In this document: piece by piece, positions 1,040-52,806 of the stretch
Numbering within the stretch: the stretch's first letter is position 1
Layout of the letters: each line of letters begins with the position of its first letter
Position numbers and translations under genes: made by a program
Notes under the pieces: model-generated
Seen by the model: only the letters and a program-made list of their open reading frames with translations
Databases searched by the model: none
What the model was told of the DNA's origin: nothing
Sequence record: MT446398.1
Length of the DNA: 52,806 bases
Source: Escherichia virus TH24
Reading direction: 5' to 3' (one strand)

Positions 1040-3058
1040 ATGTCAAAGACTGATGACCTCGGACCGGAGTTTAATGATACAGTAGCCTCGTATCTTGCCA
1101 AACACTACGGTGACGTATTAAAAGTCTCAAGAGAAAGATTCTGCATTCTATCTTTGCCATTGCTCCGTCGATATATTTCAGAAAATACTGCAATAGTTGA
1201 CAGCTATGAAGAACAAATTCAAGCAGAGTTAGAAGGCCAGGGTCTGGAAAACGATGCTGTATTGCGTTCCGTTTTCCGAGCACAACTTGAGCGCCTTCGC
1301 TCTGGCGATAAGAAAGATTCAACTGCGTATGCCGACGAGTTGAAGAAAGGAATCCAAGCTGGTGTTTCAGACCGTGTAGCTGGTTCGACTTTAGAAGAGC
1401 CAACTTCTGAACACGACAATACACAAGAGCTTGTTGATAAAATCCTTTATGACCCACACAACGTTGACCCAACTGTAATCCCAGCCAAGGTTGCAGAGCA
1501 AGTCCGTAAAGTTTTGATGAAGAGTTTTGAAGCCTTCGGTAAATGGCAGTTCCACATTCAGATGGGATTCCCATTCCAGTCTCAAGACTTTCACGATGTA
1601 ATATTCAAAGTAGGTCAGAAAGTTGTTGATGGTGAGATTGACCGACTAATTGTCACCATTCCACCACGACATTCCAAGACTCAGCTTATGAGTATTGCAC
1701 TACCACTGTATTCATTTTGCCACAATGAATCAAGCCACAACATCATCACCTCCTATGCAGAAGACGTTGTATTGGAATCAAGTGGTTACATCCGTGCTGT
1801 AATGCTGGACCCACTATTCCAACGCATATTCCCAAAGGTGAGAATCGACCCCAACAAACGTTCCCTTGAACGCTGGGGTACGACCAAAGCTGGAGTTATG
1901 CACGCAGTACCTACTGGTGGTAAATTAACTGGTAAAGGTGCTGGACTTCTTGTCGCAAACTACTCCGGCTGCTTTGTGGTGGATGACGTTATCAAACCGA
2001 AGGATGCCTACTCTGACACAGTTCGGGCAGAAATCAACGACCGATTTGATAACACCTTTATGTCCCGTCTTGCCAATGATGGGTGCATAACTGATTCGCG
2101 TGGAAACCAAATTAAGTGCTCACGTACTCCAATGGTTATCATCATGCAGCGAGTTCATGACCAAGATTTAGTTGGTTATATACTCCGTGGTGGTTCCTCT
2201 GACAAATACCATTATCTCAACATCCCAGCGATTATTGAGAAAGGTGTTGGCAGTGCTCAGTGGTACGACAAATTAATTAAGAAGCAGAACTACACTCATG
2301 CTATCCCTATTCTCTATGATTTGAACAGGAAAGAAGAGAAGTCTGCATTGTGGCCTTCACGTAAGAGTTTAGAATCTTTGGAGGCAATGAAGGAGTCCAA
2401 CCCATACACATACAACTCACAGTATGCTGGCGACCCGTCTGCTCAAGGTCATGGCCTTGTTAAAGAAGACTGGTGGCAAGAGTATGAGCCAGACGCTTTC
2501 GACAGAAGTCGTATAGTTAGAAGTTTCATCACTGCTGATACGGCATCAACTGCCAAGTCTTATTCTGACTATTCGGTCCTTAAGCATTGGGGCGTGACTA
2601 AAGAGCGGGATGTTTATTGTTTAGATATCATGCTCGGTAAGTTTGAAACTCCAGAACTCAAGACTGCTATTATCGACTTCTGGAATAAATGCAATAAGTT
2701 GGATTTGAAATATGTAGGCTGCATTCCTCGTGCTTTGTACATGGAAGATAAGTCTGCTGGACAGTTCTTGAACCAACAATTTATTAGAGATGGGAGTGTC
2801 CGAGTTTTACCACTGCCTCGTGATGGCATTAACGGTAATGACAAGGTAACTCGATTCCTTAACGCAATCCCATATTTCTCCCAAAAGAGGATATTCTTCC
2901 CTGCTGGTCATGAACACATTGACCACGTTAGACGTGAAATACTTGGATTCACTTCTTTGGGTAGTGGTACTGGACACGACGATTGTGTCGATAACGTTTC
3001 AGATATGGTTGCAATCGAATTCTCCGGCCCAAGTGCCAACTACTCGGCATGGATGTAA
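1040..3058 (+). CDS. Terminase large subunit
   Basis: ATPase-like N-terminal region, nuclease-like C-terminal region ending GHDDCVDNVSDMV (typical catalytic Asp motif). ATG 1040 with AAAGAG RBS preferred over the track GTG at 1013. Confidence 0.85.
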   Translation: MSKTDDLGPEFNDTVASYLAKHYGDVLKVSRERFCILSLPLLRRYISENTAIVDSYEEQIQAELEGQGLENDAVLRSVFRAQLERLRSGDKKDSTAYADELKKGIQAGVSDRVAGSTLEEPTSEHDNTQELVDKILYDPHNVDPTVIPAKVAEQVRKVLMKSFEAFGKWQFHIQMGFPFQSQDFHDVIFKVGQKVVDGEIDRLIVTIPPRHSKTQLMSIALPLYSFCHNESSHNIITSYAEDVVLESSGYIRAVMLDPLFQRIFPKVRIDPNKRSLERWGTTKAGVMHAVPTGGKLTGKGAGLLVANYSGCFVVDDVIKPKDAYSDTVRAEINDRFDNTFMSRLANDGCITDSRGNQIKCSRTPMVIIMQRVHDQDLVGYILRGGSSDKYHYLNIPAIIEKGVGSAQWYDKLIKKQNYTHAIPILYDLNRKEEKSALWPSRKSLESLEAMKESNPYTYNSQYAGDPSAQGHGLVKEDWWQEYEPDAFDRSRIVRSFITADTASTAKSYSDYSVLKHWGVTKERDVYCLDIMLGKFETPELKTAIIDFWNKCNKLDLKYVGCIPRALYMEDKSAGQFLNQQFIRDGSVRVLPLPRDGINGNDKVTRFLNAIPYFSQKRIFFPAGHEHIDHVRREILGFTSLGSGTGHDDCVDNVSDMVAIEFSGPSANYSAWM

Positions 3059-4602: not shown

Positions 4603-5622
4603 GTGAATGAAGTAGTTTTGTTAACCGACAAGGCCACTCTGACGACCCGTCGTTTACGCGACTCTGGCGAAATGATTGCAGAATGCACCATTGCTCGTAC
4701 TGGCATTATGCTGTACAAAGCGAAAGAACTTGGTGAGATTGCAAAACATCTAGACCCAGAATCTATTTGCCGTGTTCGCACCAAGCCGGAAGTATTATTT
4801 GATGAGGCAACCATTGAAGGTTGTCGTTCAATTCCGGTTACTATCGGTCATCCAAAAGATGACGTCAATATTAAGAACAACAAAGAACTCCAGAAAGGGT
4901 TCATCGAAGGTCGTCCAATTGCAGACGGCTCTTTCTTGGCTGCATCAATCGTTTTGAATGACGAGCAAGCCATCCGATTAGTTGATTCTGGTGTTGACCA
5001 AATCTCCCTGGGCCATAATGCCGAACTGGCTGTTGCAGAAGATGCTGATGCAGACTTCGACAAAGTTCGTATTATCCCTAACCATGCTGCAATTGTTGTT
5101 CGTGGTCGTGCTCAGACTACTCGCATTGGTGACTCTGGTGAAGAGATTTCCATTGTTGATAAGGCAACCTTTGATGTTGTTGAAGCAGAGCGTGATGCGG
5201 CGCTTGACAAGATTAGCACCCTTGAGCAGAAACTTGCTGATGCAGAAACTGCACGACTATCAGATGAAGCCATTCAGGCTGAGGTAGACAAACGTGTTGT
5301 TGCTCGTACAGCACTTCTCATTGATGTGGCCCGTCTTGGCGACGAGTTCTCCAGTCTTGATTTCTCCGGCAAGTCCGATTCGGAAGTTAAGTTGGCTGTA
5401 GTTAATAAATTGCATGACAAGGATTTCAGCGACAAGAGTGAAGATTATATCTCCGCTCGTTTCGATGCAGCACTTGAAGATTGTGATTCCATTACTTTGG
5501 GCGATGCCCTGAGCCAATCTATGCAATTCACTGCTAAGAAAGATTCAGAAGCTCGTAAGCCTAAAGTTTCTATTTCCGAAGAAGCTAACAAACGTCGTTT
5601 AGAACGCTTCAACTCTTTATAA
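4603..5622 (+). CDS. Scaffolding or prohead maturation protein (putative)
   Basis: Position between portal and capsid genes; C-terminal coiled-coil-like EAERDAALDKISTLEQKLADAE. Start uncertain: GTG 4603 or ATG 4672 (track start 4384 overlaps portal by ~200 nt). Confidence 0.45.
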   Translation: MNEVVLLTDKATLTTRRLRDSGEMIAECTIARTGIMLYKAKELGEIAKHLDPESICRVRTKPEVLFDEATIEGCRSIPVTIGHPKDDVNIKNNKELQKGFIEGRPIADGSFLAASIVLNDEQAIRLVDSGVDQISLGHNAELAVAEDADADFDKVRIIPNHAAIVVRGRAQTTRIGDSGEEISIVDKATFDVVEAERDAALDKISTLEQKLADAETARLSDEAIQAEVDKRVVARTALLIDVARLGDEFSSLDFSGKSDSEVKLAVVNKLHDKDFSDKSEDYISARFDAALEDCDSITLGDALSQSMQFTAKKDSEARKPKVSISEEANKRRLERFNSL

Positions 5623-5631
5623 GGTAAGACA

Positions 5632-6105
5632 ATGCCAAAGCAAGATTGGTCTATTAATACTGGTGCAGCATATGCGGGTGAGCAATATGGCCTGGCTACC
5701 ACTAACTCTCAGCGCCTGACTTTCAATGCTGAAACTGAAATGGCTAACTTTGGTTTAGCTGTTGTTCAGGGTACTGCTTCCAACCAGGTTAAGCCTGGTA
5801 TTGAAGCCGACGGCACTGTTCTGGGCATTACTATGCGCCAGATTAACATCGAATCTGCAACCCGTCCTGGTGACGGCACTGTTGCAATCAAAGCTGGCTG
5901 GCCTCTGGGCGTCATGCTGTCTGGCCCAATCATGGTTAAACTGGTTACTGCAATCACTGACAAGAACATTGGCGTGTCTGCCACTGGTCAATTTGGTGGT
6001 GTTGGTGCTGGCTATACTGCTGCTACCAACCTGACTGCACTTCGCTATCCGGCTGCTGCTGGTGATGTTGTTCCTGTCATGATTAACGTAGTCCCAAAGT
6101 CGTAA
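5632..6105 (+). CDS. Capsid decoration-like structural protein
   Basis: 157 aa, AAGG RBS, host-optimal codon usage suggesting high expression; sits just upstream of the major capsid gene. Confidence 0.5.
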   Translation: MPKQDWSINTGAAYAGEQYGLATTNSQRLTFNAETEMANFGLAVVQGTASNQVKPGIEADGTVLGITMRQINIESATRPGDGTVAIKAGWPLGVMLSGPIMVKLVTAITDKNIGVSATGQFGGVGAGYTAATNLTALRYPAAAGDVVPVMINVVPKS

Positions 6106-25602: not shown

Positions 25603-26160
25603 ATGCTACAAGCACAAGTTCTTGCATTTCTGTTGGTGAGTCTGTTTCACGCAAATGTCCCAGCTTCGGCTGGGGCAGTGAACACTACTATTACAGATTT
25701 TGCAAGTCATTCTTATTTAAATGGAAGTCTGAAACTATCTTCTTCACAACGCAAAGAGCTAGAATGCTACACTAAAGTTGTCTGGTATGAAGCTCGTGGA
25801 GAAGACAAACATGGAAAGATTCTGGTAGCTAATGTCGTCCGTAATAGAACTGAGTTCGGGAAGCCATTCGCTAACACCGTTTGTGATGTTGTCTATCAAC
25901 GCAATCAATTTGCATGGGCACGAGAAGCAAAGAAGAAGAATGCTCAATGGAAGCATGTAGCAAAGGTTAATTATGCCACAGAACAACAACAAGTTCTGGA
26001 CACCATTAACGTTGCAATCTCTTTTGTACTATTTAATCAACCCTCTGTCACCAAAGCAACTCACTTTTGTACAGCATCGGAGAAGTGCAACTTCAAGAAT
26101 GTTAAAGGTTTGGGTCGTTATGGTGGTCATAAATTCTATGAGTATCTAGGAAATCTGTAA
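25603..26160 (+). CDS. SleB-like cell-wall hydrolase with N-terminal signal/anchor sequence
   Basis: [51 protein letters not shown] matches the SleB/Hydrolase_2 core; N-terminal [23 protein letters not shown]. Confidence 0.65.
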
Positions 26161-27278
26161 TGGCTTACACTACCTTTTCACAAACCAAGAATAACCAACT
26201 ATTAGAACCAATGTTCTTTGGTCAGAACGTCAACGTTGCTCGCTATGACCAACAGAAGTACGGCATATTCGAGAAGTTGATTGAGAAACAATTGTCATTC
26301 TTCTGGAGACCGGAAGAGGTAGATGTTTCACAAGACCGTATTGATTATCAGAAGCTCCCACCAAATGAGCAGCACATTTTCACCAGTAATTTGCGCTATC
26401 AAATCCTTCTGGACTCCATTCAGGGACGTGGGCCTAACACAGTTTTGCTTCCAATCGTGAGCATTCCTGAGCTAGAAACTTGGATTGAAACTTGGTCTTT
26501 CTCCGAGACTATCCATTCACGTTCTTACACCCACATCATTCGAAACATTGTTACAGACCCAAGCATTATCTTTGATGAAATCGTAACTAACGAACACATC
26601 AAAGCACGAGCAATTGGCATCTCCCAATATTATGACGAACTTCAACAACTCACTGCATTATGGCAGTTGTTCGGAGAAGGGAATCATGCTGGTCATGAAA
26701 TTAGTCTGCGAGAGTTGAAGAAGAAGCTCTATCTATGCCTCATGTCTATCAACGCACTGGAAGCAATTCGCTTCTATGTTAGCTTTGCTTGCTCATTTGC
26801 CTTCGCTGAACGTAAGCTAATGGAAGGAAATGCCAAGATTATTCGACTGATTGCACGAGATGAAGCACTCCATTTGACCGGAACTCAGCACATGTTGAAT
26901 ATCCTGGCGAGTGGTAAAGATGACCCAGAAATGGGCGAAATTGCCCAAGAATGTCGTGAAGAATGCCAGAAATTATTCGAAGATGCTGCTCAACAAGAGA
27001 AAGATTGGGCCGATTATCTGTTCAAAGATGGCTCCATGATTGGCTTAAACAAGCAAATTCTGTGCGGATATGTGGAATATATCACGAATATTCGTATGCA
27101 AGCAGTTGGATTAGATGCTCCATTCAAAGGTGCAACTAACCCGATTCCGTGGATTAACGCATGGTTGAATTCGGATGCTGTACAGGTTGCTCCACAGGAA
27201 ACGGAGATTAGTTCTTACCTGGTCGGGCAAATTGACTCCGAAGTTGATACTGATGCGCTTGGTGGATTCGAGTTGTAA
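26160..27278 (+). CDS. nrdB: Ribonucleotide reductase class Ia beta subunit (orphan, enterobacterial-like)
   Basis: Near-colinear with E. coli NrdB as I recall it ([11 protein letters not shown]..., [54 protein letters not shown]-terminal [14 protein letters not shown]); no nrdA-sized ORF in the genome. Confidence 0.9.
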
Positions 27279-27300
27279 CGATTAAATGGGAGAAGAGATT

Positions 27301-27325
27301 CGATGCGTTAGCGTCGTTTCTCTTT
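27301..27325 (+). terminator. Rho-independent terminator after nrdB
   Basis: CGATGC-gtta-GCGTCG stem-loop followed by TTTCTCTTT. Confidence 0.5.
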
Positions 27326-27533
27326 GAGCTAGAATAAAATAAGTAAGTTTCCAATATTACTTATTCCCAATATTGCTACAATATTAAGAGTAATATTAGG
27401 AATGCGTAAAGTTCAAAACCAAATGGTACATGGTCGGTCAACTGTATCTAGCCGGAATTTGTTCGAACAGAAGTCCGACTATGTTATAAAATTTTTATAT
27501 AATTTTTTTTTTAATTTAAATATTGTTACAGAA

Positions 27534-27580
27534 TTAATGAGACTAGAATTGTTACGATATTAACGAGACTAGAATTGTGG
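27534..27580 (+). repeat. Tandem direct repeat (TAAYGAGACTAGAATTGT x2) beside an AT-rich tract; candidate early promoters or origin
   Basis: Two copies 26 bp apart, each with a TTGTTA...TAGAAT arrangement; preceded by a ~40-bp A/T tract (27488-27525). Confidence 0.45.
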
Positions 27581-27769
27581 CAATATTATAATTTTATTTT
27601 TGGGCCAGCGGGGAGGGGAAGCCCAACGTCCTATCGGACTTAAATACGGTCCCTACCCCAACTTTTTCCTGTAGCCTATCGGCTTTCAAACAACTCCAAG
27701 TTAGGCGCTTCGCTTATGAGTCAAGGTCAAAGTCTCCGTGCTGTTGTATCAATGGCACAGGTTTGTGGT

Positions 27770-27784
27770 ATTAGTTGGACGTGA
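27770..27784 (+). promoter_or_regulatory. Variant of the conserved ATTAGTTGGATGTGA motif upstream of the RNAP gene
   Basis: ATTAGTTGGACGTGA, one mismatch to the core, 77 nt upstream of the RNAP ATG; a TATAAT hexamer lies at 27806-27811. Confidence 0.3.
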
Positions 27785-27860
27785 ATTGTGTAATGGCTAC
27801 GCTATTATAATCCGTTTCATTCAAATCATACACAATCTTGGAGACTTACAAATGACTACT

Positions 27861-29792
27861 ATCACTACTCAAACTATCAAATCTGTTGTTCCTGCTATCA
27901 CTGCTCTGGTATACCGTGCCAAAGAGAAGCAGAACTATATGCAGCCTCAGACTTGTGCTATTGCTGCCTTAGCCATATTCAAGATGATGACGTCTTTCAC
28001 GCGTGATGACGTTATTCCGGCTATCTCGATGGTTGAACTGGCTTCTGCTTCCATTGCTGATGCCAACCGCTACAACAACGACTTAAAGTCAATGCACTAT
28101 GTTGACCCAGCTATCAACCTGATTGGTCTGGCTAAACACTTCGGTTTCATCACCATGAACGAGGACAAATCGTTCCAGATGACTGATGCATGGGTTGAAC
28201 TGGTTACAACCAAAGATACCTCAGTTCCATTCACTGAGCGTGTAACAAATGAATCTCGTCGTAAGCCTTTCGTTAAAGGTGGCAAAGTTAAGCCATCCAA
28301 GACTCTGAAAGCTGCGATTGAATTCCTGCAAGATACTGAATATCACGTTGATGCAACAATGGTTAAGGTTATCTCTTCCATGTTAGAACAACGTACATTT
28401 GGTGGCTTACAGATGCCAGAAGCAATCCAGACTGAACTCCATGTTTGGAACAATGCTGTAGCAATGGTTGGTCAGGACACTCTGTTCTCTGACTACTTTG
28501 CTGATAACCGTGGTCGTCTGTATCATGTAGCATGTGCTGGTCCTAACCCACAATCATCTGACTTTGCTCGTTGCCTGTATTCCCACAATGTTGAGAACAC
28601 TGTGAGCAAGTTTAATGCTGATGGTTCAACAACTCTGGCATACAACATGTTCATGCTTGAGCTGGAAGATATCGCTGGTGGAGACTGGACTTCTGCAAAA
28701 CGTTTAACTTATGTTGCTCAGAATCCAGCTGGTTCACTTGCTCGCATGTTGAATATGCCTAAAGGTGAGCGTCCTTCTAAGCCATTCACTTATGTTCGTC
28801 TGGCTCTGGATTGGTTCAAGTTTGAGACTACAGGTGAGTGCGATTCTCGTGTAGGCTTTGGCTTAGATGCTAAATGTTCTGGTACTCAATACTTGGCATT
28901 CATTGCTGGTAATATGGAGATGGCTCGTGCAACAGGTCTGGTTGATTCTGAGACTAAAGCATCTGACCCATACCAGTTATCTCTTCGTGAACTGTTGAAG
29001 TTGCTTGACCGTTCTTCAATGAAACCATCCGCTGAAATTATGGATGAATTCTTGAATCCGAAAGCTGGTCGTAAGTTTATCAAAACTCCATACATGGCTA
29101 TCCAATATGGTGGTGGTAAAGCTGCACTAACTGGTTCTTCTGATTTCATCGCATACATGACAGAAGCTCTCCAGATTCCTATGGAGAAAGCTGATGCATT
29201 TGCTGAACTTTGTGTAGAAGCAATCCATAACGCATTGGGTGCTAAGATTAACATGTTCATCGAGAAAGCTGCTGATGCTGCATTTGCTCGTTGTGTTGAA
29301 CTCAACAAAGAGTACATCACATATAAGCACACTGATGGCCAAGTTGTAATGAAGCCTTGCTTCCCATCTCGTGATGTTTGTGATGCGTTCAGCATTCGTG
29401 TTGACTCTCAAACTCGTGTCATCTTTGGTCAGATTCAGGAGAATAAGCCTTGGACCATTCGTGAGTCCAATCCAACTAAGGAAGAATTCAAGCGTACTTT
29501 CGTTGTTAACTACATTCAAGGTATTGACGCATTGGTTGCTCGTACTGTTGCAGTCAAAGCTAAAGAAGCTGGTCTTCGTGGCTTTACTTCAATTCACGAT
29601 TGCTTCCGTTGCTGCTTGGCTGATGCTCCTAAAATGATGGAAGTGATTCGTTCTGCTTATATTGAAATCTTTGTTCATAATAATCAGTTTGAATCTTTGT
29701 CTAAGCAACTTGGTGGCATCAACATGTACCATGAGAACATCGTAACAGAAGAGCTTCTGATGAGCGAACACGCTTACTATTTCTGTCAATAA
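27861..29792 (+). CDS. Single-subunit (T7-like) DNA-dependent RNA polymerase, compact form
   Basis: GFGLDAKCSGTQ (motif A Asp), RKFIKTPYMAIQYGGG (motif B), FTSIHDCF (motif C Asp). ATG 27861 with GGAGA RBS; 643 aa versus 883 in T7. Confidence 0.8.
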   Translation: MTTQTIKSVVPAITALVYRAKEKQNYMQPQTCAIAALAIFKMMTSFTRDDVIPAISMVELASASIADANRYNNDLKSMHYVDPAINLIGLAKHFGFITMNEDKSFQMTDAWVELVTTKDTSVPFTERVTNESRRKPFVKGGKVKPSKTLKAAIEFLQDTEYHVDATMVKVISSMLEQRTFGGLQMPEAIQTELHVWNNAVAMVGQDTLFSDYFADNRGRLYHVACAGPNPQSSDFARCLYSHNVENTVSKFNADGSTTLAYNMFMLELEDIAGGDWTSAKRLTYVAQNPAGSLARMLNMPKGERPSKPFTYVRLALDWFKFETTGECDSRVGFGLDAKCSGTQYLAFIAGNMEMARATGLVDSETKASDPYQLSLRELLKLLDRSSMKPSAEIMDEFLNPKAGRKFIKTPYMAIQYGGGKAALTGSSDFIAYMTEALQIPMEKADAFAELCVEAIHNALGAKINMFIEKAADAAFARCVELNKEYITYKHTDGQVVMKPCFPSRDVCDAFSIRVDSQTRVIFGQIQENKPWTIRESNPTKEEFKRTFVVNYIQGIDALVARTVAVKAKEAGLRGFTSIHDCFRCCLADAPKMMEVIRSAYIEIFVHNNQFESLSKQLGGINMYHENIVTEELLMSEHAYYFCQ

Positions 29793-29799
29793 GAGAATC

Positions 29800-29843
29800 A
29801 GGGCTGTCATCGAAAGGTGATGGCCCTTTCTTTATTCTTTATT
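29800..29843 (+). terminator. Rho-independent terminator after RNAP gene
   Basis: AGGGC(tgt)CATC-gaaaggt-GATGGCCCT followed by TTCTTTATTCTTTATT. Confidence 0.5.
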
Positions 29844-29859
29844 AATTAAATCCTTTAAT

Positions 29860-30570
29860 TCCCAATATTCAAGCAATATTGCTGCATGTAATATTGTTTC
29901 AATATTCGACATTAGTTGGATGTGAAGTAACAGAATACGGAGAAATATTCCGCATGTCATGTTGAAATCATTCTAGAAACATTTCAGCATGTCAACTAAA
30001 CACACAGTGTTGTAATGATGTGGCAATCATTGAACTCCCTGTCTTTGGCCGGACAAAGTTCCAGCAACCATGTGTGAAGTAGGATTATCATTCGAAACTG
30101 TTCTTCAACTAAAGCATGACCAATTGTTCCGATGGTTGTCGTCGTCCTATTATCAAGGCCCACCCACAAGCCGGGATTATCATAGACAAGTTGGAACTTT
30201 TGGACATGCTTCTTTCTTTCAATCAGAATTCGAAAGAAGAGAAGAGTCGGAGCAAAGCCTCTCGTTTTCACACAGAAGCCGCCCCGATTTTGAGCAACAA
30301 ATATTGTGACAATATTGTCGCAGTATGGCATGTAAATATTGCTACAAATTGGCATGTTAGAATGTGGCAGAATTGTTAGAGGACTAATCACCTCGAAGAT
30401 ACAATTGTCTACCAATCCGGCATGTTAATTTTGTAACAGTATTTGTGCCAATTTCGCATGTAATAGCTGTATCAGTATTGACCCAATATTCTTGCAACCC
30501 GCATGAATACTGGCTTCCAGCCAAGCGAAGGCTTTATCATCGCATGTAAATATTGTGACAATATTGGGAT
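29860..30570. repeat. Cluster of palindromic CAATATTG / GCATGTAAATATTG motifs (operator- or iteron-like array)
   Basis: At least ten copies of (C)AATATT(G), several as GCATGTAAATATTG[C/T][T/G]ACAA[T/A]ATTGG, within ~700 bp lacking a convincing ORF; further copies at 27337-27590. Confidence 0.45.
29909..29927 (+). promoter_or_regulatory. Candidate phage-RNAP promoter (motif ACATTAGTTGGATGTGAAG)
   Basis: Perfect copy of the recurring 17-bp motif, directly after the RNAP terminator. Confidence 0.4.
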
Positions 30571-31065
30571 AAAACCCTTTATTTAGTTAGTTTTATTATG
30601 CTGTACATGGTCGGTTTTCCGTACCTGTTGCGCCACTTCTTGATGTGCCAAATACATTCCAAGATAGGAGCAAACCTGTAATTAATGATGCATGTTTGAT
30701 TGTGACTAAATTCGTCTATTTGGCAGATGAATTGGTTGCAATTAAGCATGTCCATTTATCATTAGTTGCATGTGAATAAGACCAAATCTCTGTAAATTCT
30801 GCTGAAATTGTGTGACAGATTTTAGAGAGATTATGTCTCCAAGCTAATCATTGTAGTTTTCGGCACTTAATGTGTCACATATATAGCCTGTGAAAAACGT
30901 GTGGTTTATTGCTGGATTGCAACGCGCCCACCAGACTAGGAAGTCCATGATGGCGGCACACACAGGAATACTATATAACTCCCTACAACTTTAAGGTGGA
31001 TTAAGGTAATACAGGACCTCCACAATCGTTCTGTAGGGAGTTTTCTTTTAACTTTGGAGAATAAA

Positions 31066-31314
31066 ATGGATACTGTTACTAAAGCGGCTTACTTTAAAGA
31101 CCTGCAAGATGGACAAATCTTTACTGTTCGTTCTGTGAAGTGGATTAAAGTAAATGAGTCAGATAAGTATAATGCTGTAAAGTTCTTTGATTCAAGTAAG
31201 GCATGTACTTTTAGCGACAATATTGTTGTCAATATTGAAATCGAATTAGAGCCAGATGATTCAAATGATGAAATCATTCTGCGCAAAACTGTTGGGTACA
31301 CTAAAGGATTCTGA
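31066..31314 (+). CDS. Hypothetical early protein
   Basis: GGAGA RBS 5 nt upstream of ATG 31066 (track start 31054 is TTG). Confidence 0.5.
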   Translation: MDTVTKAAYFKDLQDGQIFTVRSVKWIKVNESDKYNAVKFFDSSKACTFSDNIVVNIEIELEPDDSNDEIILRKTVGYTKGF

Positions 31315-51743: not shown

Positions 51744-52196
51744 ATGTCTTGTATGACCCAAGTTGTTGCAGTTAAACGAGTACACCCTAATGCGAAATTA
51801 CCTGTGTATGCTACAGCTGGCGCTGCTGCTGCTGATGTTTGTACTGTATCCGATACCACTGTTGTTATCAATCCCGGCTCTTCTGTTGTTGTCGATACTG
51901 GCCTCCAGTTCGAAGTACCAATTGGATACGAACTCAAAGTGCATAGCCGTTCTGGTCACGGCTTTAAGTCTGGTATTCGCCTTGCAAACTGCACAGGCAT
52001 TCTGGATTCCGACTATCGCGGTAATCTTATGGTTAAGCTGCACAACGACTCGGACACAGCCTTTGTTATTCAACCAGGCGAACGTGTTTGTCAAGTGCAA
52101 GTTAGTAAAGCTACTCAACACCATTTCGTTGAAGTTGACCACTTAAATTCCACTGTTCGTGGTGAAGGTGGGTTTGGTTCAACTGGACGAGTTTAG
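51744..52196 (+). CDS. dut: dUTPase
   Basis: All five dUTPase motifs including SRSG, GILDSDYRG and RGEGGFGSTG. Confidence 0.9.
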   Translation: MSCMTQVVAVKRVHPNAKLPVYATAGAAAADVCTVSDTTVVINPGSSVVVDTGLQFEVPIGYELKVHSRSGHGFKSGIRLANCTGILDSDYRGNLMVKLHNDSDTAFVIQPGERVCQVQVSKATQHHFVEVDHLNSTVRGEGGFGSTGRV

Positions 52197-52225
52197 TAAT
52201 TAGTAACTATTTGGAACCTATCTGA

Positions 52226-52555
52226 ATGAAACTGTCCTCACCTGTTATTGTAAATAATCGCAAAGTCAAGTTTGCATATTTGAAATCCACCGTCACTTCA
52301 ACTGGCGGTGGTACTTATCTCACCCGTGCACTTGCAACGCGCAATGAAACAGGTGCGGATGTTATCGTTTTCATGCTTCCTCGTGGTGAAAATACAATCA
52401 AGAACGTCGAACGTATCAAGCGTGGGCGCGAAGATTTAATGTCGGCTGTAAAGCCGCTGATACTGCCATTTAAGATTGTGGTGGTTGTTGGTTCTACCCA
52501 GCAGTATCTTGAAGATTTCTTTAAAGATATGGATTGGAGCGATATTAAATATTAA
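52226..52555 (+). CDS. Hypothetical protein (repeat copy of 451-780)
   Basis: Identical 109-aa translation. Confidence 0.5.
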   Translation: MKLSSPVIVNNRKVKFAYLKSTVTSTGGGTYLTRALATRNETGADVIVFMLPRGENTIKNVERIKRGREDLMSAVKPLILPFKIVVVVGSTQQYLEDFFKDMDWSDIKY

Positions 52556-52609
52556 GCGGCACGCATAATAGGGAGGCTATCTGGCCTCCTATCTTATTCG
52601 GAGTCGCTT

Positions 52610-52795
52610 ATGCGCACAATTCAATGTAGTAACTGCCATTACGAAGTGGCAGAGGATGATTTTATCACCCAACAATGTCCTATCTGTGATTCATTCATGC
52701 CGCTAAATCGGCTCATTTTAAAAGCTGATTCTAGTTTGGGCAACATCATCCGCATCAATCCCGTGCAACCTCAGCCATTAGTGGATTGTGATTAA
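52610..52795 (+). CDS. Small zinc-ribbon protein (repeat copy of 835-1020, Thr to Pro variant)
   Basis: Identical apart from NPVQPQPL versus NPVQTQPL. Confidence 0.5.
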   Translation: MRTIQCSNCHYEVAEDDFITQQCPICDSFMPLNRLILKADSSLGNIIRINPVQPQPLVDCD

Positions 52796-52806
52796 AACCA
52801 AAGAGA

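Follow-up and report, generated by a model that had tools for sequence, protein, structure and literature searches.

AATATT dyads and GCATGT boxes around the RNA polymerase gene of a Carltongylesvirus: conserved repeats and putative RNA hairpins

Background

In bacteriophage T7, the early RNase III hairpins flank gene 1, short repeat arrays lie beside the terminal repeat, and the primary replication origin is located just downstream of the RNA polymerase (RNAP) gene. Pausing of the T7 RNAP at the concatemer junction has been linked to packaging. In T5, repeat region 3 (i.e. the injection-stop-signal region) is a 1.2 kb untranslated segment whose function is itself unproven. Chaseviridae are myoviruses that carry a T7-type RNAP, and their terminal repeats (DTR) of about 2.6-3 kb contain the polymerase gene. 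Members of this family serve as biocontrol agents against E. coli, Erwinia and Pectobacterium. The promoters and early regulation of the family are officially unknown, the ICTV profile listing promoters as not identified; in the GJ1 annotation, a motif referred to below as P_A is given as a putative phage promoter.

In this study, we analysed the repeats surrounding the RNAP gene of Escherichia virus TH24 (MT446398.1). The whole stretch of 52,806 nucleotides, hereafter the window, is a Carltongylesvirus genome (Chaseviridae, phiEcoM-GJ1-like). An initial annotation of this DNA had pointed to palindromic AATATT cores on both sides of the RNAP gene, and had proposed that they formed an operator array for a dimeric regulator, a set of early promoters for the host RNAP, or a replication origin with iterons. 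Both the AATATT palindromes and the accompanying GCATGT boxes proved real, with conservation extending across the phage family. We further assessed their structure, their position relative to the genome ends and the readings that could account for them.

Results

Genome context of the arrays

All genes are on the plus strand, which explains the monotonic GC skew, and replication genes are T7-like (Toprim-DnaB fusion, family A polymerase and 5'-3' exonuclease). The array regions are A/T-rich. The RNAP gene and the terminators around it are as follows:

27301..27316, + strand: terminator-like hairpin and T-run after nrdB; the upstream array starts about 35 nt later
27852..29792, + strand: single-subunit RNAP gene, 646 aa (PF00940)
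29800..29827, + strand: strong intrinsic terminator (12-bp stem and T-run) just 3' of the RNAP gene

The ORF-free stretch of about 1.2 kb that had been reported downstream of the RNAP gene was confirmed: about 1.26 kb of non-coding DNA separates the RNAP stop (29792) from the first early gene (31066), and the mechanical ORFs found there (30116-30379 on the plus strand, 29996-30415 on the minus strand), together with that of the upstream array at 27402-27563, are frameshifted or interrupted by stops in some close relatives at least. Between relatives, identity is 95-98 % in the array at 30283-30870, compared with 89-96 % for the RNAP gene and 84-95 % for the early genes, several of the latter being only partly alignable; the largest non-coding stretch of Chaseviridae genomes is more constrained than the polymerase gene.

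Repeat units and their enrichment

AATATT occurs 53 times in the window (19.2 +/- 4.4 expected). Seventeen copies, where the initial annotation had counted at least sixteen, lie in two arrays, six at 27353-27587 and eleven at 29864-30565. We ran the comparison with shuffled sequence that it had suggested: in 2000 dinucleotide shuffles of the 1,834 nt of non-coding DNA itself, the motif averages 1.7 copies and never exceeds 7, the 17 observed being about a tenfold excess. CAATATTG was found seven times in the window against 1.5 expected, with four copies in the two arrays and two inside the first early ORF (31218 and 31230). The longer motif forms described earlier were also recovered, GCATGTAAATATTG at 30328 and 30542 and GCATGTAATATTG at 29884.

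The actual repeat units are a 17-nt dyad, AATATTGTnACAATATT (perfect form AATATTGTGACAATATT), and a strand-specific GCATG(T) box. At a stringency of at least 13 of 16 matches, the dyad has 11 sites in the two regions and one in the other 49.9 kb (0.05 in shuffles), and its position matrix is symmetric, so that the dyad symmetry typical of operators is present. The GCATG box is a second motif that the initial annotation had missed. Between 29884 and 30768, it occurs 13 times on the plus strand and once on the minus strand, with 2.2 expected; after the RNAP gene, four relatives with the full 1.4-kb region have 11-13 copies on the plus strand and 0-1 on the minus strand, and a fifth, with 711 nt of the region, has four and one, respectively. 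Motif order and spacing are kept across at least six genera, TTGTGAC and GCATGT being invariant across genera while the AATATT arms are not. The earlier view of these repeats as functional, non-random cis elements was right.

Layout of the two arrays

The upstream array and the elements that separate it from the RNAP gene comprise:

27353..27397, + strand: first cluster, four AATATT including the dyad AATATTGCTACAATATT (27369-27385), within a predicted hairpin at about 27357-27409
27426..27478, + strand: predicted hairpin in which a GGTCGGTC box, conserved family-wide, pairs with GTCCGACTATG
27484..27524, no strand: 41-nt A/T-only tract, longer than any other in the window
27519..27588, + strand: three dyads at 26-nt spacing (27519, 27545, 27571), i.e. 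a 26-nt tandem repeat
27635..27640, no strand: putative left DTR end (...CCTAT/CGGAC/TTAAATACGG), by homology
27770..27785, + strand: P_A motif ATTAGTTGGACGTGAA, with the RNAP start 82 nt downstream

The A/T tract of 40 bp and the adjacent tandem repeat noted previously were both retrieved, the latter by TRF (period 26, 2.2-2.6 copies, 27522-27588), with copies TAATGAGACTAGAATTGT at 27534 and TAACGAGACTAGAATTGT at 27560. The same 26-nt repeats are annotated as repeat_region in the GenBank record of flopper. Three regularly spaced dyads thus adjoin the 41-nt A/T tract, which is the form of an iteron origin, and the 26-nt repeat contains a sigma-70-like match on the plus strand (TTAACG-18-TATTAT).

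Downstream of the RNAP gene, the following elements were identified:

29864..29906, + strand: hairpin Hp-A (18-bp stem), two AATATT dyads 26 nt apart paired, with a GCAUG box in the loop
29911..29926, + strand: P_A motif, exact consensus, 4 nt after Hp-A
29952..29994, + strand: hairpin with GCATG boxes in its arms (29952/29957 and 29987)
30244..30255, no strand: putative right DTR end (...GAAGAGTC/GGAGC...), by homology
30300..30326, + strand: perfect dyad AATATTGTGACAATATT overlapping hairpin Hp-B (30301-30326)
30349..30428, + strand: hairpin H1 (26 pairs, four helices), GCAUGU boxes at 30352 and 30420 paired at its base, carrying the invariant GCATGTWAGAATGTG
30427..30569, + strand: dyads at 30427, 30474 and 30549 (perfect) and GCATG boxes at 30456, 30501 and 30542, succeeded on the 3' side by an AT-rich stretch and a second GGTCGG box (30609)
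30690..30751, + strand: hairpin H2, paralogous to H1, with GCATGT boxes at 30690 and 30746 as its boundaries
30761..30776, + strand: P_A motif in overlap with a GCATGT box; final element ahead of the early-gene leader

A model built on H1 matched H2 in 14 of the 24 sources searched (E <=1), with E of about 1e-4 in close relatives and 29.8 bits (E = 3.7e-4) in the window. Hp-A and H1 both fit the shape of a T7-type RNase III site, for which an imperfect, untranslated hairpin spanning about two helical turns is expected.

Covariation and folding

Compensatory changes across genera keep H1 and Hp-A paired. For H1 (12 distinct sequences), 89.0 % of cells are paired against 79.2 % in shuffles, a value reached by 0 of 500, the structures having been derived from the same sequences as those tested and the alignment used (A4) being fitted to the model; the same picture was obtained with a MAFFT alignment that was not model-fitted. 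Fourteen pairs of H1 changed on both sides (again 0/500), its covariation score is 0.312 versus 0.161, and four of the five measures gave values that none of the 500 shuffles attained, slid controls being 29-44 % paired. As for Hp-A, 93.5 % of cells are paired (1/500 shuffles) and three central pairs covary, with five sequence types at the dyad centres (CAAGC/GUUUC, CGGAC/GUCCC, CAGAC/GUCUC, UCAGC/GCUAA and UUAGC/GCUAC); its one-sided changes all give G.U pairs. The H2 stem also covaries (UA 3, AU 3, GC 1). The hairpins of the array preceding the DTR showed no compensatory change among close relatives, only changes to G.U.

Plus-strand folding z-scores for four array segments were -3.9, -4.0, -4.6 and -6.5 (controls, -0.1 to -1.5), and the plus-strand fold was more stable than that of the minus strand in all four. 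The 13:1 strand bias of GCATG is accounted for by pairing, since the invariant G.U pairs of the GCAUGU:GCAUGU helix would turn into A.C mismatches on the opposite strand. Because GCATGT contains the self-complementary CATG, pairing between boxes is in part automatic. Real support for this pairing comes from the variable pairs only.

No Rfam 15 family matched the window at gathering score. Hits to Hp-A, H1, H2 and the upstream array were at chance level (E 1 to 4): four to miRNA-precursor families at the three hairpins and one to a Listeria sRNA over the upstream array. miRNA-precursor families in Rfam are generic long hairpins.

Promoter-like sequences, DNA-binding domains and genome ends

P_A is located 82-92 nt upstream of three ORF starts (RNAP, SSB and an ORF at 40249), and thus partly shows the recurrence upstream of gene clusters expected of phage RNAP promoters; the dyad and box units do not, being confined to two regions of the genome. 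Sigma-70 -35/-10 pairs with 16-18 nt spacing were not enriched (9 versus 10.6 +/- 3.6) and six of the nine lie on the minus strand, which does not bear out the earlier proposal of host-RNAP early promoters. Extended -10-like sites (TGn, then a hexamer whose second base is A and sixth base is T) were modestly more frequent than expected in the downstream region (19 versus 9.8, P = 0.004), equally on both strands, with 14 on the minus strand there; no such enrichment was found in the upstream region.

Searches against Pfam and PHROGs revealed no HTH, RHH, initiator or other DNA-binding domain in 34 ORFs, mostly small early ones, many of which have no known fold; a cognate protein could also be encoded by the host.

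From homology with six relatives with mapped ends (Mangalitsa, 4HA13, JL1, PM1, Y2 and Myduc), we infer that the DTR spans about 27635/27640 to 30244/30255. The arrays would then lie just outside both DTR borders and also after the RNAP terminator, an adjacency to genome ends that holds by homology only and that agrees with the earlier pointer to the physical ends of the genome. Different genome ends are reported for PYps23T.

Discussion

We favour, with moderate confidence, a reading in which the main role of the AATATT dyads and GCATGT boxes is to pair as the arms of conserved plus-strand hairpins, so that an untranslated multi-hairpin RNA would flank the RNAP gene, possibly in the manner of T7 RNase III sites. 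The 1.26 kb without ORFs downstream of the RNAP gene would be a densely structured untranslated RNA, and so, probably, would the 0.3 kb before the terminal repeat. The arrays are presumably transcribed rightward, as suggested by the orientation of all genes and by P_A at 27770 and 29911 upstream. The hairpins may work as RNA, providing signals for processing, stability or insulation, bracketing the RNAP message and forming a long leader for the early operon. An additional role in end formation or replication is possible, because the hairpin clusters bracket the putative DTR borders.

Several observations sit less easily with hairpin-forming RNA. The array before the DTR lacks compensatory change among close relatives, and the perfect 17-nt dyads and the 26-nt-spaced trio beside the A/T tract would also suit DNA-binding dimers. 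The location at both DTR borders suggests a role at the DNA level, at least six tandem hairpins with no intervening genes differ from the T7 RNase III layout, and the same hairpins could form in single-stranded DNA. It is improbable, in our estimation, that the multi-hairpin region of about 1 kb is a family-wide ncRNA made early by the phage polymerase and acting in trans on the host, perhaps also marking the DTR borders. Such an ncRNA might, like 6S RNA, act as a decoy for the host RNA polymerase, an option raised because H1, a long irregular hairpin, has an invariant extended -10-like UGUWAGAAU; it might also be a sponge for a host RNase or a defence sensor.

None of the three proposals of the initial annotation (regulator, promoter, origin) gained positive support, whereas a fourth, hairpin arms, did. 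That the dyads are double-stranded DNA sites for a dimeric protein, either operators over early promoters or origin iterons with their A/T tract as in lambda ori and plasmid iteron origins, appears unlikely. The perfect or nearly perfect 17-nt dyads with their symmetric matrix, the 26-nt-spaced trio abutting the longest A/T-only tract, the T7-like replication genes, the position of the T7 primary origin and the overlap of the last upstream dyad with the sigma-70-like match on the plus strand would all suit such sites. The symmetry expected of an operator array is thus present, but none of the 34 ORFs scanned yielded an HTH, RHH or initiator domain, sigma-70 sites show no enrichment, and the centres of different dyads covary so as to pair, which protein binding does not need. 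Arm changes are moreover biased towards those compatible with G.U, and it is TTGTGAC and GCATGT, not the AATATT arms, that are invariant across genera. We regard as distinctly unlikely that the arrays are signals for making the DTR, with proteins or single-stranded DNA hairpins outside the borders marking concatemer nicking and the start of repeat duplication, much as for the T7 arrays beside its terminal repeat or for T5 repeat region 3. The ends of the six relatives map to 27635-27640 and 30244-30255, a TCGGA-like motif occurs at both cuts, the left-end block is conserved even in Nefertitivirinae, and the T5 untranslated repeat region also straddles an inner DTR border. In four Escherichia phages, the first full dyad met on going outwards from the DTR (TTGT core, 12 or more of 16 matches) is centred 54-62 nt from the left end and 54-64 nt from the right one, but at the same stringency this distance is not kept in Myduc, PM1 and Y2. 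Furthermore, the arrays exceed 1 kb, one cluster lying 340-390 nt within the repeat and some units 450-560 nt past it; apart from the dyad, the two flanks show no significant inverted similarity to each other, and the ends of the present phage are placed by homology, those reported for PYps23T being different.

That the units are promoters, either an extended -10 cluster for the host enzyme or promoters of the phage RNA polymerase, is very doubtful. They are all oriented like the genes, TTGTGACAAT fits TGnGACAAT and GCATGTTAGAAT fits TGnTAGAAT, and ATTGTGACAATATTG resembles the SP6 promoter, GTGACACTATAG. The downstream excess of extended -10-like sites and the ICTV entry on promoters would also be consistent with this; yet that excess is equal on both strands, -35/-10 pairs are at chance level, the units are confined to two regions of the 52 kb genome, a different motif (P_A) precedes three ORF starts, and most copies of the Nefertitivirinae motif (GTATGACTATG, GTGTGAC) have no -10 features. 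Chance repeats or non-functional duplications, to which the A/T-richness of the array regions could lend itself, are hardly credible: they are contradicted by the tenfold excess relative to shuffled versions of this DNA, by conservation across six genera exceeding that of neighbouring genes, and by the covarying paired positions.

The non-coding stretch of Chaseviridae holds two mutually pairing repeated motifs, is located at the putative DTR borders and fits none of the RNA families described. What was a cluster of palindromes is now a set of specific, testable hairpins (H1, H2 and Hp-A), with coordinates for work on early expression, RNA processing, replication start and end formation.

Comparison with known systems

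Lambda-type iteron origins and operator arrays share with this locus dyad sites of about 17 nt, regularly spaced beside an A/T-rich tract, but here no initiator or repressor was found in 34 ORFs and dyad centres covary between sites. T5 repeat region 3 likewise straddles the inner border of a long DTR that carries the first-expressed genes and is more conserved than the neighbouring ORFs. It has eight ordered DnaA boxes, in sequences unrelated to our arrays, whereas DnaA boxes are not enriched here (5 in the window versus 8.1 expected, two of them in the region) and form no ordered set. At the T7 concatemer junction (phiOL, phiOR and the RNAP pause site), repeat arrays also lie outside both DTR copies in a phage with its own RNAP; the terminal repeat is 160 bp in T7 versus about 2.6 kb here, with the RNAP gene inside, and the DTR borders here lack the T7 class II pause signal ATCTGTT.

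The early RNase III hairpins of T7 (R0.3, R1, R1.1, etc.) differ in layout, with one hairpin between gene pairs against at least five in a single gene-free stretch of 1.26 kb here, and stems here consist of two repeated motifs, AAUAUUG...CAAUAUU dyads and GCAUGU. By description, not by sequence, they resemble the present hairpins in being imperfect, of about 20-26 bp, on the transcript strand, mutually paralogous and placed in untranslated segments. In both phages, such hairpins flank the gene of a T7-type RNAP in a genome with a T7-type replisome.

Genome identity and gene context

The repeat-bearing region was 92-95 % identical to that of the Escherichia phages phiEcoM-GJ1, MLP1, TH29 and their relatives and, judging by its sequence, the phage belongs to the genus Carltongylesvirus, family Chaseviridae. 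Since bases 1-1031, which lie within late genes, are repeated identically at 51776-52806, the window represents a circularly assembled genome with a unique length of 51,775 bp; this 1,031-bp end identity is an assembly overlap and not a physical terminal repeat. According to the ICTV profile, Chaseviridae genomes carry direct terminal repeats (DTRs) of about 3 kbp, and no promoters of the phage polymerase have been identified in them. The following features of the window were considered.

26160-27278: nrdB, end of gene
between nrdB and the RNA polymerase gene: non-coding stretch of 573 nt, containing the upstream array (27353-27588)
27852-29792: single-subunit RNA polymerase gene (PF00940)
from the RNA polymerase gene to the first early gene at 31066: 1.26 kb without conserved ORF, containing the downstream array
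29864-29906, + strand: hairpin Hp-A
30349-30428, + strand: hairpin H1
30678-30765, + strand: hairpin H2, a paralogue of H1
2694, 27770, 29911, 30761, 33522, 38050, 38190, 39825, 40157 and 47763, all + strand: matches to P_A, a motif of the GJ1 annotation

Elsewhere in the genome, two ORFs that directly precede the large terminase gene (1040-3058) are candidates for the small terminase subunit: one of 61 aa (835-1020), zinc-ribbon-like with its two CxxC pairs, and one of 109 aa (451-780), assigned to a PHROG whose function is not known.

Repeat units and their enrichment

The enrichment of AATATT cores proposed in the initial annotation was borne out, with 17 copies in the two non-coding regions as compared with a mean of 1.7 and a maximum of 7 in dinucleotide shuffles of the same 1,834 nt of non-coding DNA. 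The tandem repeat (period of 26 nt) and the A/T tract (an A/T-only run of 41 nt) were also present as described there. The real unit is a 17-nt dyad, AATATTGTnACAATATT, with perfect copies at 30300 and 30549; at a threshold of at least 13 of 16 matches, the two regions held 11 dyad sites, the remaining 49.9 kb a single one, and shuffles 0.05. A second motif, the GCATG(T) box, occurred between 29884 and 30768 with 13 copies on the + strand and one on the - strand, and was often joined to the dyad, as in GCATGT-AAAT-ATTGTGACAATATT.

Each array additionally contains one box of another kind (GGTCGGTCAACTGTATC at 27432-27448 and GGTCGGTTTTCCGTACC at 30609-30625), kept family-wide and reading GGTCGACC in the Nefertitivirinae, the other Chaseviridae subfamily; for the first of them, pairing with GTCCGACTATG (27467-27478) is predicted within a hairpin. 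GGTC also serves T7-type primases as a recognition core.

Conservation among Chaseviridae

The same architecture was found in Carltongylesvirus, Sabourvirus, Myducvirus, Suwonvirus, Loessnervirus and metagenomic relatives. Within the 1.2-1.4 kb following the polymerase gene of these relatives, GCATG was counted 11-14 times on the + strand versus 0-1 times on the - strand, and dyads were likewise present, their order and spacing being orthologous. Among close relatives, identity reached 95-98 % in the array (30283-30870), 89-96 % in the polymerase gene and 84-95 % in the early genes, several of which align only partly. Directly before the early genes, the leader carries an insertion of ~100 nt (30871-30977) that is missing from GJ1, Mangalitsa and flopper and shared by only some relatives.

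In the Nefertitivirinae (Aeromonas phage PAGF2_10BT and Shewanella phage Spp001), the same gene-free stretch after the polymerase gene (5279-5551 and 4781-5784, respectively) holds different strand-specific repeats, i.e. GTATGACTATG, GTGTGAC and CTCTTCGA. Over the entire 7.6-kb locus, the + and - strands held 6 and 2 copies, respectively, of GTATGA(CTATG) and 9 and 0 copies of GTGTGA(C); the stretch itself accounted for 6 and 0 of the former and for 8 of the latter. CTCTTCGA was present in 4-5 copies. These phages also carry the block found at the left DTR end and a GTCGAC box. The repeats of the arrays in the window go unmentioned in the published accounts of phages ST32, PP101 and Tiny and of an APEC phage.

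Predicted hairpin structures and covariation

In the RNAalifold structure of a six-genus alignment, two GCATGT boxes together closed the base of a hairpin of 80 nt (H1), several inner pairs of which showed compensatory changes; the box-to-box pairing is partly automatic, given the CATG core. In a MAFFT alignment of nine sequences, 87 % of the cells were paired versus 79 % in shuffles (reached by 0 of 500), 11 pairs had changed on both sides, and slid controls were 27-43 % paired. The covariance model built from this alignment retrieved the hairpin in 20 of 24 sources, the others being the two Nefertitivirinae loci, one locus that stops short of the region and one short contig of metagenomic origin. 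With 12 distinct sequences, 89 % of the cells were paired, both-sided changes affected 14 pairs and 34 cells (0 of 500 shuffles for each) and the covariation score was 0.312 versus 0.161 in shuffles, the structures being derived from the same sequences that were used to test them. Pair 28/76 (positions 30367 and 30413 of the window) was intact in all 12, as A-U in six, G-C in five and C-G in the remaining one.

The same model also detected H2, whose stem covaries too. In Hp-A, the dyads at 29864 and 29890 pair mutually over 18 bp and their centres covary across five sequence types, each one-sided change yielding a G.U pair. All four array segments folded more stably on the + strand, with z-scores from -3.9 to -6.5 as compared with -0.1 to -1.5 in control segments. 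The 13:1 strand bias of GCATG is explained by the pairing of GCAUGU with GCAUGU through two G.U pairs, which works only on this strand. In the upstream array no compensatory change was seen among near-identical close relatives, because they vary too little. No Rfam family matched, apart from weak hits, namely four at Hp-A, H1 and H2, to families of generic long hairpins, and a single one over the upstream array, to a Listeria sRNA. Neither tRNA nor tmRNA was found.

The region is demonstrably non-random, conserved, covarying and more stable on one strand. We infer that it is transcribed, and we give an even chance to the motifs being arms of a conserved battery of hairpins, carried by an untranslated RNA that lies on both sides of the polymerase gene and constitutes the early-operon leader.

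Probable terminal repeat borders

DTR ends are available for six relatives, as PhageTerm predictions from reads for Mangalitsa, 4HA13 and Myduc and as two copies present in the record for PM1, Y2 and JL1. All six left ends fell within a few bases of one conserved sequence, at 27635-27640 of the window (...CCTATCGGAC/TTAAATACGG), and the right ends of Mangalitsa, 4HA13 and JL1, the three Escherichia phages aligned to the window, mapped to 30244-30255; from these ends the phage would, by homology, possess a DTR of about 2.6 kb with the polymerase gene inside. In disagreement with the six relatives, the 2,339-bp DTR reported experimentally for the Yersinia phage PYps23T corresponds to window positions 27780 and ~29920, both inside P_A copies; this may be an artefact of a PCR or ligation junction within the 16-nt repeat or reflect different cutting in PYps23T.

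The surroundings of the left end (27603-27665) are kept even in the distant Nefertitivirinae (PAGF2_10BT ~1940-2000; Spp001 ~1925-1985), in the order T-run, purine block GGGGAGGGGAAG, cut, GGTCCCTACCCC. Phages of Escherichia, Proteus, Pectobacterium and Erwinia, representing five genera, share an almost unchanged 30-nt block, CCTATTATCAAGGCCCACCCACAAGCCGGGA (30145-30176), that lies some 75-100 nt inward of the predicted right end. Variability peaks at 30258-30282, just past this end, and at 30118-30190, ~60-130 nt before it, in a non-coding region otherwise 95-99 % conserved.

Alternative roles of the arrays

Other roles would be compatible with the RNA reading. The initial annotation had also considered host early promoters, a suggestion that the sigma-70 scan did not sustain, as sigma-70-type sites were not enriched; extended -10-like sites in the downstream region showed an approximately twofold enrichment, symmetric between both strands. 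As the units occur nowhere else in the genome, they are not general phage promoters, and their likeness to P_A (ATTAGTTGGATGTGAA, a "putative phage promoter" in the GJ1 record) is confined to CAT...TGTGA. A promoter role of the units appears very improbable. P_A itself behaves like a putative promoter: at up to 3 mismatches, 0.9 matches would be expected and ten were found, the top five lying between genes and three of them 82-92 nt before ORF starts (RNA polymerase, SSB and the ORF at 40249). Beyond 40157 (~39 kb) no intergenic match was found, those at 47763 and 2694 being weak and inside ORFs. That the dyads act at the DNA level, as operators or iterons, is unlikely in our view. Regular dyads and an A/T tract give the upstream array an iteron-like form in sequence. 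No DNA-binding domain was detected with Pfam and PHROGs in 34 ORFs; Pfam was run on 25 small, mostly early ORFs and ten further, mostly large proteins, and PHROGs on ten proteins, yielding only SSB, replication enzymes and proteins without assigned function. A scan of 185,579 species genomes with AATATTGTNACAATATT gave, among the matches listed, single scattered ones in A/T-rich genomes of unrelated taxa and none in Enterobacterales, a result that speaks neither for nor against a host operator. Dyad centres would be free to vary in a protein site, and here they covary instead.

Terminal-repeat border signals are suggested by position: the upstream array stops ~50 nt outside the predicted left DTR border, the main downstream array starts ~50 nt outside the right one, and the centre of the first full dyad lies 54-64 nt outside each DTR end in the four Escherichia phages. 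A further cluster (29864-29906) is located within the predicted DTR, directly after the polymerase terminator, and the DTR flanks, compared as mutual inverted copies, showed no significance beyond the dyad itself. Packaging of T7 has been linked to pausing of its polymerase at the concatemer junction; the T7 class II pause signal is absent from the DTR borders. DnaA boxes were not enriched. We hold a border function to be rather improbable. The same hairpins could also be formed by single-stranded DNA.

Discussion

If the motifs are arms of RNA hairpins, a multi-hairpin untranslated RNA would bracket the polymerase gene and form the early-operon leader, the hairpins possibly acting as processing, stability or insulating signals; RNase III involvement in particular is far less probable than the hairpin battery as such. 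The arrays constitute a genuine cis element, strongly conserved within a known phage family and as yet undescribed, and belong with structured untranslated RNAs and with repeat regions at terminal-repeat borders. In T7, RNase III hairpins flank gene 1, which is the closest precedent for hairpins flanking the polymerase gene here. For conserved untranslated repeats across an inner DTR border, the precedent is T5, in which a conserved untranslated repeat region of 1.2 kb, of still debated function, straddles that border.
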